From the sequence record PQ863256.1: a stretch of DNA of 64,000 nucleotides; one strand, given 5' to 3'. The stretch is from Escherichia phage Ptacy1479. The notes beneath the pieces were generated by a model that had not been told where the DNA came from, ran no database searches, and saw only the letters and a program-made list of their open reading frames with translations. Positions within the stretch are counted from its first letter, which is position 1. Each line of letters opens with the position of its first letter. The position numbers and the translations under genes are program-made. This document shows positions 30,561 to 48,264 of the stretch, piece after piece.

Positions 30561-31087
30561 TTATTCTCCTAGCAGCTTACGTATTCCATTGCGGAAATTA
30601 TCGTACTCTTCAGGGTATTCAAACCCACACTCAAGAAGAGCATAGTGAACAACCTTCAACAAATCCTGAACCTTATTCTTATCTTTGTGTCGATAAGCAT
30701 ATTTGATCATGTTGGTTTGTTGGAAGTTCAACTGTGGGTTTGCATGATAAAACTCAACAGGTTGAATGATTTTAGATTCCGGGTTATAGTGTGCCCCACC
30801 AACCATAGTATCTAAAGCTGGACTTCTTTTGCTGGTTTGTTCGGTTGTAGGCTTAAAACTAACCACAGGAACAGATGAGTAGATTGGGTATTCTTCGCCT
30901 ACTGGTGGTTTTACTATCAACCTTTTCATTGTATACCGAATCTCTGTATCAGAGGAACCGGATGAAATCTCTTCAATAGATTTACGATAACTGTCAATAA
31001 TTGCACGTAACATAGAGATTGTTTTAGTCTTCTCTTTTAATTTCTCTGTTAGTACAATAACTTCTGCTTTTTTGGATTCAAACTCGG

Positions 31088-31097
<10 letters not shown>
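30561..31097 (-). CDS. hypothetical protein with DUF3310-like C-terminal domain
   Basis: GGAHYNP...IKYAYRHKDK...HYA pattern recalled from phage DUF3310 proteins. Confidence 0.4.
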
Positions 31098-41892: not shown

Positions 41893-42095
41893 TATGAAAA
41901 TTTCCGTTCTGTTAAAAAGTATATAACTTCACTATCTGGAGACCGAACTTTCTCTCCATTTACTAATTTCTTAGCATCTTCATATGAAGCACAATCCAAA
42001 GCAGGGTTATCAGGTGTTGGCTTCCCTAGGAAATATTTCCAAGTCCAACGCTCTCCGTCATCATCTTGACAGTCAAGAGTCCACAATGTTTTCAT
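41892..42095 (-). CDS. hypothetical small protein
   Basis: 67 aa; ATGA coupling at both ends. Confidence 0.4.
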   Translation of the reverse strand: MKTLWTLDCQDDDGERWTWKYFLGKPTPDNPALDCASYEDAKKLVNGEKVRSPDSEVIYFLTERKFS

Positions 42096-42277
42096 TTAAC
42101 AACCTTAAATTTGAATGTTGTTGGGTGATAATAGTGCAACCTGTTGATAGTATGCTTTGTTTCAAGGTATGTCCTACAGGAGTGGCACATAACATGAGAC
42201 AAACCAGTCACAGGATTGGGCTTAAAATTGATGATAAGCTTCTCTTTCTTACAGAAGCTACAGACTTTCTTTTCCAT
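42092..42277 (-). CDS. small Cys-rich (CxxC...CxxC) protein (start revised to Met24)
   Basis: GGAGAAAAG upstream of ATG 42277. Confidence 0.4.
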   Translation of the reverse strand: MEKKVCSFCKKEKLIINFKPNPVTGLSHVMCHSCRTYLETKHTINRLHYYHPTTFKFKVVK

Positions 42278-42491
42278 CTTTTCTCCAGTGGTCAACGAAT
42301 TGCTGAAACACTTTATGGTCGAAGGTGAAACCACGAGCAATCCCACACTCTACGAAAGTAGAAGGCATATAGTCTACATCACCTTTAGATGTATGACCAT
42401 AAACTTGAATAAGCTTTTTAATCTTACCCTTCTCTCTTCGAGGAAGCATCCTAAATGCCTCCTGAATATCTGTAATATGTTTGACTTTCAT
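42258..42491 (-). CDS. hypothetical small protein
   Basis: AGGAAT upstream of ATG. Confidence 0.45.
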   Translation of the reverse strand: MKVKHITDIQEAFRMLPRREKGKIKKLIQVYGHTSKGDVDYMPSTFVECGIARGFTFDHKVFQQFVDHWRKDGKESL

Positions 42492-42503
42492 CAGAAATTC
42501 CTG

Positions 42504-42635
42504 CTAATCCTCTGGATTATGAGAACAGCAATACTCACATACTCCGCAACATGGACAAATTTCTACACTTGGGTCATATGCATCATCCACTGTCATTCCG
42601 CACTTGGTACAGAACACGTCGTCATCTTCTTCCAA
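42504..42635 (-). CDS. small zinc-ribbon protein (43 aa from TTG; not in track)
   Basis: 8 Cys (CTKCG...CPCCGVCEYCC); GGAG 9 nt upstream of TTG; fills gap after ThyX-like gene. Confidence 0.3.
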   Translation of the reverse strand: MEEDDDVFCTKCGMTVDDAYDPSVEICPCCGVCEYCCSHNPED

Positions 42636-42637
42636 TA

Positions 42638-43294
42638 TTAAATCTCCAATGTTTTCTTCAGAGCTGCCCACGAGATTGGGTAGATCTTAGTCATCTCTTC
42701 GTCTACAGATTTAGCAAACACTCGAACTTCATATTGAGCGTGAGAGGAGAGTCGCTGACGACACAACTCAAACCAGCCATACAAAGAACCGGTCCACACC
42801 CACTCAGTGATCATCCCCTGAGGAAGAACAAATCGAGCTTGCTCTGGTGCAATAAATTCAATCAACTTGTCATATGCTGCTAGAGAAGCTTCATATGCAT
42901 CATTAATCAGCATTAATGCTTCAGCTCGTTCTCCGTCGATGAGTTGAATCCCTGAACCTGCATGGAGGTCCGAAGGTCTCGCAAAAATCTCTTTAGGGAT
43001 GAAGACTTCAACTGCTCCATCTTTATACCGCCGGGACATTTCGTTCCACGAGAATCCAACCTGATGCTTGCCCAACTGTCTCGCAATTGCGATAGGTGCT
43101 TTGCATCGGAAACTGACTTGCGGGTGTCGGAATGGGGTAACATGCTTCTCTCTTGCGAGGAAGTTGATGAGACGTTCATCACGTTCATTTAAATCACCTT
43201 CACGGGTTACGCCAAAGGAAACTCGAGCTGCGTTTACTACGCTACGATCACTTCCCATAGCTTCGATTAATGTTGCTTGTAATTGTTCATTCAT
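42638..43294 (-). CDS. thyX: flavin-dependent thymidylate synthase ThyX-like, with KHQ in place of the RHR signature
   Basis: ThyX-like along its length (ARVSF, KAPIAIARQ, SHAQYEVR) but RHRX7S position reads KHQX8S. Confidence 0.65.
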   Translation of the reverse strand: MNEQLQATLIEAMGSDRSVVNAARVSFGVTREGDLNERDERLINFLAREKHVTPFRHPQVSFRCKAPIAIARQLGKHQVGFSWNEMSRRYKDGAVEVFIPKEIFARPSDLHAGSGIQLIDGERAEALMLINDAYEASLAAYDKLIEFIAPEQARFVLPQGMITEWVWTGSLYGWFELCRQRLSSHAQYEVRVFAKSVDEEMTKIYPISWAALKKTLEI

Positions 43295-43309
43295 CCGTGA
43301 ATTTCCTTA

Positions 43310-43519
43310 TTAATATTCCTTGATTGGGGATACCACAAAACCACCAAGAGGTGAGGTAAAAGATTTATGTAAGCTTATTTTGCTATAAATCTTTGGAGCC
43401 ATCTTAAGAGCCTTCTTAAAACGACGAGCATCTTTACGAGTAGCAAAATGCTCTGTAACAGGTATAGAATGGTCTTGGTAGATATAATACATCACCGTCC
43501 AGTATTTTCCCATAATCAA
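43310..43519 (-). CDS. small basic protein, member of 4-copy paralog family
   Basis: shares W.V...F.TRK.AR.FKK...H pattern with 44996/45205/45414. Confidence 0.45.
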   Translation of the reverse strand: MIMGKYWTVMYYIYQDHSIPVTEHFATRKDARRFKKALKMAPKIYSKISLHKSFTSPLGGFVVSPIKEY

Positions 43520-43788
43520 ACACCTAGTGCAGTAGTTAAAAATGCTTTCAGGTTTGCCTCAGTCTGCATACCAGAGAGGCTGTAGTGTGCGCCACTGTTA
43601 CGGTCAGGTACGACGAAAGCGGGTATGCTTCGTACACCATATTTAACAGCTTGTTCACGACCATCTCCTTCAAGGATATTGATCTCTTCCACTTCTACAT
43701 CAAACTCCCTAACAACCCTCTCAAAGGTGGGAGCCATTGCTTTACATGGAGCACACTGATCACTATAAAACTTAATTACTTTAGACAT
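43516..43788 (-). CDS. thioredoxin
   Basis: 90 aa; CAPC active-site CxxC at residues 12-15, thioredoxin-like size. Confidence 0.7.
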   Translation of the reverse strand: MSKVIKFYSDQCAPCKAMAPTFERVVREFDVEVEEINILEGDGREQAVKYGVRSIPAFVVPDRNSGAHYSLSGMQTEANLKAFLTTALGV

Positions 43789-43796
43789 GTAAATCC

Positions 43797-43976
43797 TTAT
43801 GCAGTCAGGAGGTGAAGCAGGAACGGGATAACAACAGCTACGATAACCATGATGGTTGATGCTGTTTGAATCTCACCTTTCTTATCAGGGGTTTCTTCAA
43901 TAAGCTTACCAGAAGCCCAATAAATACCACCACCAATAAAGATAGCCCAAATACCCCATACGATTGCTGATAACAT
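43797..43976 (-). CDS. small two-TM membrane protein (59 aa; not in track)
   Basis: MLSAIVWGIWAIFIGGGIYW and IMVIAVVIPFLLHLL helices; TAAGGA upstream of ATG. Confidence 0.4.
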   Translation of the reverse strand: MLSAIVWGIWAIFIGGGIYWASGKLIEETPDKKGEIQTASTIMVIVAVVIPFLLHLLTA

Positions 43977-44037
43977 ATATCTATATCCTTATAAATAAGT
44001 TCGCCCCACCTCGGGTTAGGAGACAGGGCGGAGGTTT

Positions 44038-44601
44038 TTAGTAAGACACGTCGCCACTTGAATGGGACATGTTGCTCTTGACGAAGTAGCAATACTTGCC
44101 AAGACCTTCATTAATTTCTTGAAGCATACTCTGATCGACAGGGTAGGATGCTAAATCGCCATCAAACTCATCCATCTTCTCAATAATACACATCAAGGTC
44201 ATGCACATATCAGAGAGCATACCGTCCATGTCTAGATCAGCATTACCCTCTGAAAACCAAGCATGGGAGAGGTAGTTAGCCGCTGTAGCATCCACCTTAA
44301 CACAGTGATATCGCATACGTTCAGCAATACGATCTCCTACTTGTCGTGCGTAATCTTCCATCTCATCAAACATACCATGAACACCCTGAAATCCTGCACC
44401 AGAGACGTTCCAGTGGTAGTTTTTAGCTTTGATATGCAAGAGTTCCATGTTAGCTTGTAAGCAGCTCAGGATGTGTTCTAGGCTGTTTCCACTAATCATA
44501 CCCTGCATTGTTTCAAGGCGAGAGATTGAAAGCTCAGACCGGTCTAACACACTATAGCTGTCACGACCAATCTCAGGTAAATCAAAAACATTCTTATGCA
44601 T
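44038..44601 (-). CDS. dps: Dps-family ferritin-like protein (start revised to Met17)
   Basis: KAKNYHWNVSGAGFQGVHGMFDE...DRIAER with ferroxidase-position His, His, Asp, Glu conserved. Confidence 0.7.
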   Translation of the reverse strand: MHKNVFDLPEIGRDSYSVLDRSELSISRLETMQGMISGNSLEHILSCLQANMELLHIKAKNYHWNVSGAGFQGVHGMFDEMEDYARQVGDRIAERMRYHCVKVDATAANYLSHAWFSEGNADLDMDGMLSDMCMTLMCIIEKMDEFDGDLASYPVDQSMLQEINEGLGKYCYFVKSNMSHSSGDVSY

Positions 44602-44923
44602 TTGGGTTTTCTCCATCAAGTTCAACTGAATTAGCAACATTACGTGCAATATTATCCATTACCTGCTGGGTAATTACGATGCAGTTCTGCGGGTCTACTG
44701 ACTTAGAACGCCCCATTTCAGGGTCATACACCTTAACTCGTTTAGCAGTTGAACCTGTAACCTGAAGAACCTTCAATAGATATCCCTGATTACCAATAGA
44801 CCAAGCAACAACATCACGATTCTTGATAAAGCGACCAAGCATATCACGATGATAAAACTGTTGCATCACCTTGGATTTTGTAATCTCTTCAGTGGGCGGG
44901 GCCACTTTACTCAAATCTAACAT
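44594..44923 (-). CDS. hypothetical protein
   Basis: AATGTATA-containing element about 39 nt upstream; 109 aa. Confidence 0.5.
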   Translation of the reverse strand: MLDLSKVAPPTEEITKSKVMQQFYHRDMLGRFIKNRDVVAWSIGNQGYLLKVLQVTGSTAKRVKVYDPEMGRSKSVDPQNCIVITQQVMDNIARNVANSVELDGENPNA

Positions 44924-44962
44924 AACTCTCTCCTGTAAAATACAAATTCTTATTGTACTCTA

Positions 44963-44971
44963 TATACATTT
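44963..44971 (-). promoter_or_regulatory. AAATGTATA variant of the promoter-like element
   Basis: 8/9 match to TAATGTATA, similar spacing to ATG 44923. Confidence 0.35.
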
Positions 44972-44995
44972 GAGAGTTACCATATCTACTACCAA

Positions 44996-45205
44996 TCAGT
45001 AGTAAATTACTTTAGACATAAAAGAACCCGAGCTAGGGTCTTCGTACCAGCGATGAATGTCAGCACTTTTAACAGTTCCTATTAGAGCTTTCACATTCTT
45101 TTTAGCGACACGAGCCTCTTTGCGAGTGTTAAACAGTTTGATATTATCTTTACCTAAGTGTTGTTTCTGTTCCCAAACAACACGAACAGCCCACATCTTT
45201 TTCAT
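44996..45205 (-). CDS. small basic protein, tandem paralog 1
   Basis: 69 aa; TRKEARVAKK motif. Confidence 0.5.
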   Translation of the reverse strand: MKKMWAVRVVWEQKQHLGKDNIKLFNTRKEARVAKKNVKALIGTVKSADIHRWYEDPSSGSFMSKVIYY

Positions 45206-45414
45206 TAGTAATGTACCTTTCCGCTGATATAAATACGACCAGAGGAATACTCCTTGGCCTTATGGATACTAATGCTCTTAGTTAAGTCCATATTGAACAT
45301 AGACTTTTTAAAATCTCGAGCTTGTTGACGGGTGGGCAGTGCAGTCATAGTCATACCACCTGATGCCCACTTAATCTTCGCTAACCAGAACTGTCTCATG
45401 GTGATTGGTCTCAT
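45205..45414 (-). CDS. small basic protein, tandem paralog 2
   Basis: 69 aa; TRQQARDFKK motif. Confidence 0.5.
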   Translation of the reverse strand: MRPITMRQFWLAKIKWASGGMTMTALPTRQQARDFKKSMFNMDLTKSISIHKAKEYSSGRIYISGKVHY

Positions 45415-45611
45415 TAATAATAAACCTTACTATTTGCCATAAAAGCACCTTCGCTATTCATGAAAGCTTTACCAATACTAACCTTGTTAAGTCTAAAAGT
45501 AGACTTGTATTGATTTTTGACCCTACGTGCGTGCTCTCGAGTATTAACAAAATCTACAGCTACCAACTCTCCAGACGTGTTATCATGTACACGAACAATC
45601 CACTTTTTCAT
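45414..45611 (-). CDS. small basic protein, tandem paralog 3
   Basis: 65 aa; TREHARRVKN motif. Confidence 0.5.
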   Translation of the reverse strand: MKKWIVRVHDNTSGELVAVDFVNTREHARRVKNQYKSTFRLNKVSIGKAFMNSEGAFMANSKVYY

Positions 45612-45835
45612 TTTACTAAACCCTTCATATAATCATAAAGATCATTAGAGGCTTTACCCCATTCAAGGTGCTTCTTATCCATATAACTCTTACAGGCTTC
45701 TTTACTGCTCTCAACGCATATATCAAATTGATGACATGCTCGACCAAAAGTTATAGCTTTTAACTGAACTTCGGTAGTTAAACCTTTAAGCTCTTGAAAC
45801 TCTTCTTCAGTCATTTTACACACCTTTGGATGCAA
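45608..45835 (-). CDS. hypothetical small protein
   Basis: 75 aa track ORF. Confidence 0.4.
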   Translation of the reverse strand: MHPKVCKMTEEEFQELKGLTTEVQLKAITFGRACHQFDICVESSKEACKSYMDKKHLEWGKASNDLYDYMKGLVK

Positions 45836-46349
45836 CTACACCTTCAGAGTTATTATAACGACCCTTCACTGCATAGGAATCATCACCAGCGTGAGAGTGT
45901 TCAAACATAACCATTTGACCAACACGCATCCCAGCACGAACTCGTAAGCTGTGGTGCTTGGTTACGTTGTGGAATTCAAATGTCAGCTTACTACTATTAA
46001 ATCCTGCATCAGCCCAACCGGCATGGAGGTGGTTCAGGCCACAACGAGCCATAGATGAACGCAGAACAAATAGACTTGAGATATTATCTGGAAGATTAAA
46101 CTCCTCCATAGAGTGAGCCAAGAAGAACTGACCCGGAGTGATAACCAAACCCTCTTCAGGAATCTTTACTTCCTTCCACTGAAGATTCTCTTTCGCATCA
46201 ATATCAACGATGCCATCAGCCTGTTCTTCAACAAGGATAGTATCACCAATACGGATATCCACACTAGCAGCGTTAACATACTTATGCTCCGCATCCAGAT
46301 AGCCATTGTCAATTACATCATGCAGTTCAATACTTCCTAGTAAACTCAT
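45816..46349 (-). CDS. dcd: dCTP deaminase (dUTPase superfamily)
   Basis: HAGWADAGFNSSKLTFEFHN...GMRVGQMVMF pattern. Confidence 0.75.
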   Translation of the reverse strand: MSLLGSIELHDVIDNGYLDAEHKYVNAASVDIRIGDTILVEEQADGIVDIDAKENLQWKEVKIPEEGLVITPGQFFLAHSMEEFNLPDNISSLFVLRSSMARCGLNHLHAGWADAGFNSSKLTFEFHNVTKHHSLRVRAGMRVGQMVMFEHSHAGDDSYAVKGRYNNSEGVVASKGV

Positions 46350-46361
46350 TCTTTTTCCTTA

Positions 46362-47708
46362 TTAGCGAATGTTTTGTGAATTTATTAAGTGGTCCAGTTC
46401 TCCACCAACCTGAGGCTCTAATACTTCAGGATTGTTGGCAACAAACCGATCAGCGAGACTGCGGCTGACAGTCTCAGCAAGTTCGTCATGAGAAGGAGTA
46501 TCAAGATCGGAGAGACTACCTACCACATCTTGAGCCACGCCTTCATCAGTCCAGATAACACGAGAAGGGGCGTTGATATCACCAACAGCGAAACCTTGAC
46601 CAGAGAACTGGTGACGGCTAACAGTAAAACCATTTGATCGACCACGAGAAGGACTAGATATCCATCTCTCCATAGAATCCCTTGTAATACCAAGAGCTTC
46701 TTCAAAAGATGTTCTACGAGTAGGGCTTTCTCTTCGTGACTCTTGTGCTCGACGCATTGCAGGGGCTACAAACACCCCTTCAATTGCATTGTGTCGGTTA
46801 GGTTCTTCCCGACCAAGCAGATCACCACCCGTGTTGGTTGTTAAGTTTGTCAACCCTTCAGACCAATATGCTCTTATCTGACTAGAGCCATGAACACTTG
46901 ACATTAACTGAATCTCTTCATAAGGGATTCCAAAGAATCGACTCATGTCACGATTAACACAATACTGAGCACTTGTTGTGTCCTCAATAAGAGCAACCTG
47001 ACCTCGTTCGTTGACCAGATGACTAACTGGTTGAGGTGTGGGAAGGTATCGAGTTTGGGCCATGTATTGATGTGCAGCTGCTGGAGAGGAAAATCTCAAC
47101 ACTTGCGAGTTAGGCCACTTCTTGTGAACATACCTGATTTCACGACTAGAAACAACCACTGGACAAGGGGCGGTCATAGCCAAATATCCATGAGAAGTCA
47201 TGAATAAGTTGTCAAGAGTCATCGCACCACGACACATCATAGGAAAATTATCCAATACCTCTTCAATAGAAGTAGGATAATTAAACATGAATTGGATACG
47301 AACCCCATTCCACTGAAACTCAATAATATCAGTGAATGTTAATTGAGAACTCCCAGCATAGGATTCGTTTGTAGCTTCAGCAAGAAGGGATGCATATTCA
47401 ACATCTTGTGACTCTAGCCATTCCTTCACATTACTTTCAATCTCTCTTCCAAGAGCTTGCCAACGATCAGTTGGGACGAAAGTATTTTGAGTTCTTGGTG
47501 TTTGTCCTCTGACAATAAAGATATCAATGTCATGTGGAGCTGTGTTATTAAGCACAGCATCACGAACAGCCCCACCAGTAATGATGGGACAGATACCGTC
47601 TGGAACTAAATTGTTGTTAATCAACTGTTCAATGAAGTGACGACCAACAGTGATATCAGGTTGTTGAGCAACCTTATCTTCAATTTGGTTAATCGGGATA
47701 ACAATCAT
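46362..47708 (-). CDS. nucleotidyltransferase with CCA-adding / poly(A) polymerase-type head domain (start revised to Met20)
   Basis: IITGGAVRDAVL...HDIDIFI matches GGxVRD...DxD head motif; C-terminal half Ser/Arg-rich, unassigned. Confidence 0.55.
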   Translation of the reverse strand: MIVIPINQIEDKVAQQPDITVGRHFIEQLINNNLVPDGICPIITGGAVRDAVLNNTAPHDIDIFIVRGQTPRTQNTFVPTDRWQALGREIESNVKEWLESQDVEYASLLAEATNESYAGSSQLTFTDIIEFQWNGVRIQFMFNYPTSIEEVLDNFPMMCRGAMTLDNLFMTSHGYLAMTAPCPVVVSSREIRYVHKKWPNSQVLRFSSPAAAHQYMAQTRYLPTPQPVSHLVNERGQVALIEDTTSAQYCVNRDMSRFFGIPYEEIQLMSSVHGSSQIRAYWSEGLTNLTTNTGGDLLGREEPNRHNAIEGVFVAPAMRRAQESRRESPTRRTSFEEALGITRDSMERWISSPSRGRSNGFTVSRHQFSGQGFAVGDINAPSRVIWTDEGVAQDVVGSLSDLDTPSHDELAETVSRSLADRFVANNPEVLEPQVGGELDHLINSQNIR

Positions 47709-47709
47709 T

Positions 47710-48264
47710 TTACATTTTCCAATATAATGAAGGTGGGTCGTAAGGGTCAAATCCCGTGAGTTCACACAAGAAAAGATAAACCTTAACAGTTAAGTTAACG
47801 TCCTGTTCACAATAAGTAAACATATCTTCAGTGAAAGCATCCCATGCTTCCTCTTGCTCACCGTAATCACCTTTAAGTTCCTCTAAGAACTCACCCCATT
47901 GCTTCAAACCATGACCTCTTGGGCCACGTCTAGGGTCGCCTTTCGGGTACTCAGGACTGTCACCAATACGGTCAGGTTTAAGATATCGACTAAGACATAA
48001 AGTGTCAAAGACGTTAAAATGATATTTAATCAAAGAAGGATACATCTTCTTCAGAGCAGGTAAGTCGAAGTCAATGATATTATGACCAACGAGCACATCA
48101 GCTTCTGTAAGTTTACGAATCCCATCTTCAATTTGGTGAGGCCGATAGCCCCACCTTTCACCAGATTCAACATCGAAGATATAAATACACCATACTCTAG
48201 TTATGTCATCGTACAGTGCATTACTCTCGATATCAAATGCAAACACTTTCTTTTTCTTTACCAC
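47710..48264 (-). CDS. 3'-5' exonuclease (DnaQ-like), stand-alone proofreading domain
   Basis: FDIES (Exo I), GHNIIDFD (Exo II), YCEQD (Exo III). Confidence 0.7.

Follow-up and report, generated by a model that had tools for sequence, protein, structure and literature searches.

The window analysed here is the whole 64,000-nucleotide stretch of Escherichia phage Ptacy1479 (sequence record PQ863256.1), a phiEco32-like coliphage (Kuravirus, Gordonclarkvirinae). Its minus strand carries a gene of the flavin-dependent thymidylate synthase (ThyX) family, the features of which are as follows.

42638-43294, minus strand: thyX coding sequence, 218 aa, SRRY-type (KHQ) ThyX, assigned from the ORF list, Pfam, TIGR02170, PHROG, PDB and AF2.
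43302-43308, minus strand: ribosome-binding site (RBS) AAGGAAA, 7 nt 5' of the thyX ATG, read directly from the sequence.
43025-43084, minus strand: variant motif A71-RQLG-K76-H77-Q78-VGFSWNEM-S87-R88-R89-Y90, equivalent to A73-Y91 of T. maritima ThyX, from the translation and the alignment with 1kq4/6j61.
42779-42781, minus strand: codon of Y172, which takes the place of the FAD-phosphate Arg (T. maritima R165, M. tuberculosis R190), from the MAFFT columns.

The thyX ORF starts with ATG, and the stop codon of the small ORF upstream lies only 15 nt ahead of it, which places the gene in a tight leftward operon. The surrounding 2 kb (42000-44000) share 96.9% DNA identity with Escherichia phage Paul, whose annotation also puts an RBS where AAGGAAA stands here. 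The ortholog in that phage, gp065, differs at 5 of 218 residues and has an identical motif. At the codon level there are 16 synonymous and 5 conservative non-synonymous differences, none of them in the motif, and this ratio points to purifying selection. The overlapping ORFs on the plus strand or in other frames (42551-42883, 42962-43192, 43068-43313 and 42913-43188) match no family and are regarded as shadows of the thyX frame. Scans near thyX for TAATGTATA, which we take to be the phiEco32 late-promoter word, and for sigma-70 promoters returned counts at chance level.

The product of 42638-43294 belongs to the ThyX family over its full length. Thy1 (PF02511) is its sole Pfam match (E=1e-43, 149.8 bits against a cutoff of 24.8) and is covered from profile position 1 to 190 of 191, the NCBIfam equivalog thyX (TIGR02170) scores 127.4 bits against a cutoff of 87.9, and PHROG 85, thymidylate synthase, matches at 1.8e-62. 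The curated profiles thus bear out the preliminary description, which had read the ORF as a ThyX homolog along its length, and the strings ARVSF, KAPIAIARQ, SRRY and SHAQYEVR that it had pointed to are all present. As a family match, however, SRRY holds only in part, since its first Arg belongs to the variant itself and the canonical sequences checked read S-G/Q/A-R-Y. Significant matches in a sequence search of the PDB are ThyX chains only, the best being Thermus Thy1 (6j61, 2.9e-31), with T. maritima ThyX (1kq4) at 7.6e-25. ThyX enzymes are homotetramers with bound FAD, in which three subunits contribute to each active site. The AF2 model of the phage protein, a ligand-free monomer, has a pLDDT of 89.1 and a pTM of 0.84. 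Its top 50 Foldseek matches are all ThyX structures (TM 0.75-0.83), the T. maritima structures 1o26/1o27 scoring about 0.8. A ThyA-family dUMP/dCMP hydroxymethylase, the class of enzyme with which the known pathways of thymidine hypermodification begin being classical ThyA-family (PMC8989533), can be ruled out here, as Pfam gives Thy1 only and the structural matches are to ThyX only.

Translation of 43025-43084 (minus strand) gives ARQLGKHQVGFSWNEMSRRY. HMMER alignment with 1kq4 and 6j61 sets K76-H77-Q78 on T. maritima R78-H79-R80, and one additional residue precedes the conserved Ser (VGFSWNEMS against IA-SYNELS), making the spacing X8 instead of X7. T. maritima R78-H79-R80-X7-S88-G89-R90 thereby corresponds to K76-H77-Q78-X8-S87-R88-R89 in the phage. 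The literal signature RHR-X7-S, by which ThyX was defined in 2002, is consequently replaced by KHQ-X8-S, as had been noticed from the letters alone. An RHR motif located elsewhere can be dismissed, as the tripeptide is absent from the whole 218-aa protein and HMMER, MAFFT and Foldseek all set KHQ on RHR.

The three arginines that clamp the phosphate and ribityl portions of FAD in T. maritima (R78, R80 and R165; R95, R97 and R190 in M. tuberculosis, hereafter Mtb) are K76, Q78 and Y172 in the phage protein. Compared with T. maritima, it therefore carries Lys for R78, Gln for R80, Tyr for R165 and one residue inserted after the motif, together with Arg for G89 (giving SRRY), Arg for E58 and Ser for N163. 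The dUMP-binding and catalytic residues are all present, namely H51, R72, Q73, E85, S87, R89, Y90, R154 and R181, the counterparts of T. maritima H53, R74, Q75, E86, S88, R90, Y91, R147 and R174.

What these changes could mean depends on the roles of the residues in characterised enzymes. The RHR of one subunit, along with S71 and R190 (Mtb) from another subunit, forms hydrogen bonds with the ribityl of FAD and with its AMP and FMN phosphates, while the first Arg of RHR also hydrogen-bonds the isoalloxazine and contacts dUMP (PMC6514825). The substrate dUMP is held by Mtb R87, S105, R107, R172 and R199 (PMC6514825), all of which are kept in the phage ThyX. In a 3GWC-based docking paper, Mtb R95 touches the dUMP 3'-OH and Gln106 hydrogen-bonds the dUMP phosphate; by alignment, Gln106 corresponds to T. 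maritima G89 and to R88 of the query. The preliminary description had assigned the RHR arginines to both the flavin and the dUMP phosphate. The first of these contacts stands, but the second does not, the phosphate being held by Mtb R87, Q106, R107 and R172. Given the roles of RHR, R190 and Gln106 in known enzymes, the variant touches the flavin-phosphate clamp and one dUMP-phosphate contact, and not the surroundings of uracil C5 or flavin N5. The machinery that handles uracil, deoxyribose-phosphate and methylene transfer is unchanged. Judging from the residues aligned, Arg88 could supply positive charge in the dUMP/flavin phosphate region and substitute for the lost arginines, and Lys76 and, in the Kuravirus clade, Arg56 may join it in restoring charge near both phosphate groups.

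The KHQ/SRRY motif is the signature of a subfamily and not a one-off. Its nearest homologs, the 120 best from 5.8 billion proteins with identity down to 54%, have KHQ-X8-S-[R/M]RY in 119 cases (119 being readable by pattern search), and 116 have SRRY. Their sources are Kuravirus, Salmonella phage SeKF_80, and Yersinia and other enterobacterial phages. One record in this set is named Staphylococcus phage Pel53. Further afield, 1.84 billion cluster representatives were searched exhaustively with HMMER, and 6,904 clusters matched ThyX. The 150 nearest (39-55% identity) follow the pattern [K/R]-[H/S/Y]-x-x-G-x-x-x-[N/S]-E-x-S-R-R-Y, with Q, K, T, H, V, E and others at the third motif position. RHR is found in only 1 of these top 150 representatives, so RHR-X7-S under-describes the ThyX family rather than excluding the phage protein from it.

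Residue conservation was followed in a MAFFT alignment of 246 subfamily sequences, of which 126 are representatives, with T. maritima and Mtb ThyX; the Mtb sequence is identical to that of PDB 3gwc, by which the numbering was verified. In T. maritima numbering, which is used for the whole subfamily below, H53, Q75, E86, S88, R90, Y91, E144, R147 and R174 are essentially invariant among the 246, and R74 is nearly so (110 of 126 representatives). H79, T55 and S30 are likewise kept. The picture differs at the clamp. Lys occupies position 78 in every one of the 120 near homologs (among the representatives, 99 have Lys there and 26 Arg), only 7% of the subfamily have Arg or Lys at position 80, and position 165, Tyr in the query, is Arg in none of the 246. 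The basic residues R143 and R157 are also lost across the branch, and Arg has been gained at 43, 65, 89, 172 and 184, with position 89, a Gly in T. maritima, being Arg in 236 of 246. Arg in place of E58 is a property of the Kuravirus clade; in many other members it is position 169 that carries Arg or His. A strict rule by which R80 is lost and R89 gained does not hold, as about 10 of 246 sequences are without both and one has both. Because of those that lack both, Arg89 is not an obligatory substitute for R80.

In a rough NJ tree, the SRRY-type sequences form one clade, which is sister to the group of T. maritima, Thermus and Borrelia and not to the M. tuberculosis type. Two intermediates, P0242 (RHR with RRY) and P0237 (KHQ with SGRY), fall on the canonical side of the tree. 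The PDB contains no solved structure of a member of the SRRY-type branch, and we found no biochemical or genetic test of an SRRY-type ThyX in the searchable literature.

The branch extends beyond phages. When each GTDB species, represented by one genome, was scanned with a profile built from an alignment of 12 sequences, 87 loci were detected. The KHQ-type gene is chromosomal in Spirochaetia, Poribacteria and Chloroflexota, where it is located on large contigs or a complete chromosome and has the same neighbours in independent MAGs. It adjoins citrate synthase and dihydroorotate dehydrogenase in Spirochaetia, and other chromosomal neighbours, all of a housekeeping nature, include aldo-keto reductase, short-chain dehydrogenase, 2-oxoacid dehydrogenase E1/E2 and aminotransferase. 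On plasmids of S. aureus and Enterococcus, an SRRY-type thyX begins at the last codon of the DHFR gene dfrE, with which it overlaps; dfrE-thyX is thus an operon of the thymidylate cycle, found in a context of trimethoprim resistance. In IMG/VR, the motif occurs in at least 600 viral contigs. Among 80 of them, the recurrent neighbours are DNA polymerase A, class II ribonucleotide reductase, T7-type primase-helicase, endonuclease I, 5'-3' exonuclease, MazG and T7-type RNA polymerase, and DNA-modification enzymes are not recurrent.

In the window, three more genes make up the nucleotide-related context of thyX.

43516-43788, minus strand: thioredoxin, two genes upstream of thyX (Pfam Thioredoxin, 1.3e-12).
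45816-46349, minus strand: dCTP deaminase, the putative upstream source of dUTP and, through it, of dUMP, located in the same leftward block (Pfam PF22769, 3.6e-34).
30561-31097, minus strand: ortholog of phage Paul gp031, which its depositor annotated as a nucleotide (dNMP) kinase; Pfam gives only DUF3310.

The gene at 45816-46349 has an ortholog in phage Paul that is annotated as dCTP deaminase, and the combination of dCTP deaminase, Thy1 and thioredoxin is also present in N4-like Achromobacter phages (PMC3915230). Taken together, the gene very probably encodes a working flavin-dependent dTMP synthase that belongs to the SRRY-type branch and has a rebuilt flavin-phosphate clamp. A divergent but functional ThyX was one of the two readings offered initially. 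It is now supported by the conservation of the motif, purifying selection and the kept catalytic residues, as well as by the chromosomal housekeeping context, the DHFR-thyX plasmid operon and the replication neighbours in viruses. The predicted reaction would be dUMP + CH2-H4folate + NAD(P)H -> dTMP + H4folate. In the proposed pathway, the phage dCTP deaminase would make dUTP, which host dUTPase would turn into dUMP; ThyX would then convert dUMP into dTMP, and the annotated phage nucleotide kinase would phosphorylate dTMP to dTDP, on the way towards dTTP. The GC content of the window is 42%, and that of E. coli is about 51%. Such a shift of the pool to dTTP could suit a 42% GC genome replicating in a roughly 51% GC host. 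ThyX would also spare reduced folate, as it does not oxidise it to dihydrofolate and places no demand on DHFR. The motif itself is not tied to the deaminase, which is found in the flanks of only 2 of 160 other KHQ/SRRY loci.

A second possibility, which we consider unlikely though worth keeping in view, is that the same reaction is run with different cofactor handling: FMN in place of FAD, weak or exchangeable FAD, or another reductant. It is compatible with a working dTMP synthase and would refine that explanation, defining a biochemical subclass. The residues that have changed systematically are the contacts of the AMP phosphate, FMN phosphate and ribityl (PMC6514825), and the charge has been rewired through the loss of R80, R143, R157 and R165, the Arg residues at 43, 65, 89, 172 and 184, and Arg for E58 in the Kuravirus clade or, elsewhere, often Arg/His at 169. 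Against this, H79, T55, S30 and the general fold are kept, and Lys at 78 retains the charge. The RHR-type ThyX of Borrelia is also without R165, so the loss of R165 alone defines no new mode of cofactor use.

The other reading offered initially was an altered nucleotide substrate or chemistry, made relevant by a nearby amide-bond cluster and the dCTP deaminase.

50268-57474: amidoligase, GATase, ATP-grasp and GGACT cluster.

In its most developed form, ThyX would make a 5-substituted dUMP, such as 5-hydroxymethyl-dUMP, instead of or in addition to dTMP. Water could capture the exocyclic methylene intermediate, and the product could feed a DNA modification, possibly one decorated by the amidoligase, ATP-grasp and GATase proteins. 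We regard both this product and this route as very improbable. They would offer an account of the Gordonclarkvirinae, which are remarkably resistant to restriction-modification without a known modification pathway and for which the BASEL paper suggests dU in place of T (PMC11990801). The cluster lies 8-14 kb from thyX in the same leftward gene block, and the distant phage-like contig L029 has an amidoligase cluster directly upstream of a KHQ-type thyX. L029 is, however, the only one of 160 other KHQ/SRRY loci with the cluster in its flanks, and it shares the whole order of the replication module, a sign of shared ancestry more than of a functional link. The link between the motif and the cluster is accordingly weak. 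An altered chemistry also received no positive support from the residues, as the changes hit the holders of the flavin phosphate and ribityl and those around uracil, C5 and flavin N5 are all canonical. The same motif is encoded in chromosomes among housekeeping genes and in the DHFR operon, and hundreds of viral contigs that have it show plain replication neighbours. In addition, phiEco32 DNA yielded to restriction mapping and subcloning, the termini having been mapped by restriction profiling and subcloning (phiEco32 paper), and a modified-base synthase derived from ThyX was not found in the literature.

A catalytically dead ThyX-fold protein with some other role, be it nucleotide or flavin binding, structural or regulatory, is still harder to credit. 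The textbook RHR signature and R165 are indeed lost, but the catalytic and substrate residues are invariant over a very deep clade, the gene is under purifying selection, and relatives occur in chromosomal housekeeping contexts and in a DHFR operon. The least credible reading is an altered sugar or base specificity, either a UMP C5-methylase like PolB, which performs that step in polyoxin biosynthesis and illustrates that the scaffold can change substrate, or a dCMP-directed enzyme: PolB belongs to the same fold family and 4p5a is among the PDB matches, but its similarity is much weaker (1.3e-15 against 2.9e-31 for 6j61 and 7.6e-25 for 1kq4), R174 and R90, which read uracil O4, N3 and O2, are invariant and argue against cytosine, and the phage gene keeps company with dCTP deaminase and replication and nucleotide-metabolism genes, unlike PolB with its nucleoside-antibiotic cluster.

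The new element is modest: RHR-X7-S fails for a large, mainly viral ThyX branch with a rebuilt flavin-phosphate site and SRRY. The affected part of the family takes in a great many genes of phages as well as some on bacterial chromosomes, and motif-based annotation, or the reasoning that a missing RHR means an inactive or novel protein, would mislead there. The branch could be viewed as a natural experiment on FAD and dUMP binding in ThyX, in which two of the three flavin-phosphate arginines have been lost and a near-invariant Arg has been gained beside the Ser of the substrate loop, and it may be of relevance to inhibitor design and cofactor exchange. For the Kuraviruses, a conserved ThyX together with dCTP deaminase and the annotated nucleotide kinase argues that they need thymidylate. 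This weighs against the published proposal of U in place of T. The argument does not touch a 5-substituted dUMP product, which, if true, would account for the restriction resistance of Gordonclarkvirinae and be the first case of a DNA-modification route that begins with an enzyme of the ThyX fold.

Among characterised enzymes, T. maritima ThyX (TM0449; 1kq4, 1o26) and Thermus thermophilus Thy1 (6j61) share about 31-33% full-length identity with the phage protein. H53, R74, Q75, E86, S88, R90, Y91, R147, R174 and H178 are common to all three, whereas the former two have RHR-X7-SGRY in place of KHQ-X8-SRRY and R143 and R157 are gone in the phage branch. In records of phiEco32-like phages the gene is already annotated as thymidylate synthase, with its non-canonical motif unremarked.

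Phage thyX genes have been reported to be functional (PMC7725336 and its references 75-77). The ThyX proteins of mycobacteriophages Jovo and Catera, Clavibacter phage CMP1, cyanophage S-MbCM7 and Thermus phage phiLo share with the query the family and a role in phage nucleotide metabolism; they differ from it in having RHR, S-[G/Q/A]-R-Y and R165. A search for an experimentally tested SRRY-type member led to CMP1 (RHR, SGRY, R165), Jovo and Catera, all of them canonical, and the experimental precedents that could be traced are therefore of the canonical type. The lp54 and lp59 ThyX of Borrelia, considered for the same role, are RHR-type, yet they lack R165.

SRRY-type ThyX is also encoded by Streptomyces phage IchabodCrane, Bacillus phage BSTP5 and the dfrE-thyX plasmids. 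Like the query, they have SRRY, PFRH for PFEH and APEQAR, and are without R80 and R165. They differ in that the central His is Tyr (K-Y-x) and in an insertion of 7-19 residues between the motif and WNE, and in the rough NJ tree this type branches at the base of the SRRY-type clade.

Within the same Gordonclarkvirinae genomes, the presence of a dCTP deaminase together with a nucleotidyltransferase led the authors of the BASEL paper (PMC11990801) to suggest that dU may replace T. In the window, the corresponding region is:

45816-47765 (-), dCTP deaminase and nucleotidyltransferase

The sole match of this nucleotidyltransferase was a weak one to a poly(A) polymerase/CCA-adding head-domain (5.2e-4). 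ThyX is conserved in these genomes, which also retain a gene annotated as a nucleotide kinase; a T-free genome agrees poorly with this.

Two small features lie near thyX on the same strand:

42504-42671 (-), cysteine-rich ORF of 55 aa (CTKCG ... CPCCGVCEYCC)
44002-44030 (-), strong hairpin with an 11-bp stem and seven G-C pairs

The cysteine-rich ORF shares 34 nt with the 3' end of thyX and matches phrog_16989, annotated as a membrane protein, but its appearance is closer to that of a small zinc-ribbon protein. The hairpin separates the Dps/ferritin-like gene (44038-44649) from the small ORFs downstream; lacking a clear T-run, it may mark a site of processing or act as a weak terminator.

Many representatives of SRRY-type ThyX, the branch that lacks the textbook RHR, are far longer than 220 aa and were aligned in two or three separate stretches. 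The long examples are:

350-640 aa, SRRY-type ThyX cluster representatives P0122, P0135, P0165, P0172, P0188, P0233 and P0241

Their length and split matches suggest fusions or the insertion of inteins or homing endonucleases. In viral contigs, a GIY-YIG SegE-like endonuclease also recurs among the neighbouring genes.

SRRY-type thyX is also carried by plasmids:

L170:3471-4669, dfrE (DHFR; DHFR_1, 5.6e-53) and SRRY-type thyX, Staphylococcus aureus plasmid NZ_CP113048.1

Here thyX immediately follows dfrE, its start being the last codon of dfrE, and recombinases, IS1216, and genes for aminoglycoside resistance surround the two genes. Similar matches were found in plasmid records of Staphylococcus (n = 17) and Enterococcus (n = 3). 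DHFR and ThyX here form a mobile pair, in a setting of trimethoprim resistance.

Borrelia ThyX is another exception to the "conserved" active-site set:

L168:159-956, thyX, Borreliella burgdorferi lp54
L169:129-968, thyX, Borrelia hermsii lp59

Both retain RHR, but SGCY or SGSY occupies the site of S-x-R-Y in other ThyX proteins, leaving no arginine equivalent to Thermotoga maritima R90; R165 is likewise absent.

Among the 160 other KHQ-type thyX loci, a single one was accompanied by the phiEco32-type cluster, in a distant, phage-like contig:

L029:189-6705, phiEco32-type cluster, primase and KHQ-type thyX, MAG Cellvibrionaceae contig JAGKWU010000024.1

The cluster, directly upstream of the primase and thyX, comprises a COOH-NH2 ligase type 2, an unknown ORF, Amidoligase_2, GATase, and an ATP-grasp-like gene. 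Its proteins share 27-40% identity with those of the window, and the module order is identical to that of window 42638-57474 (-).
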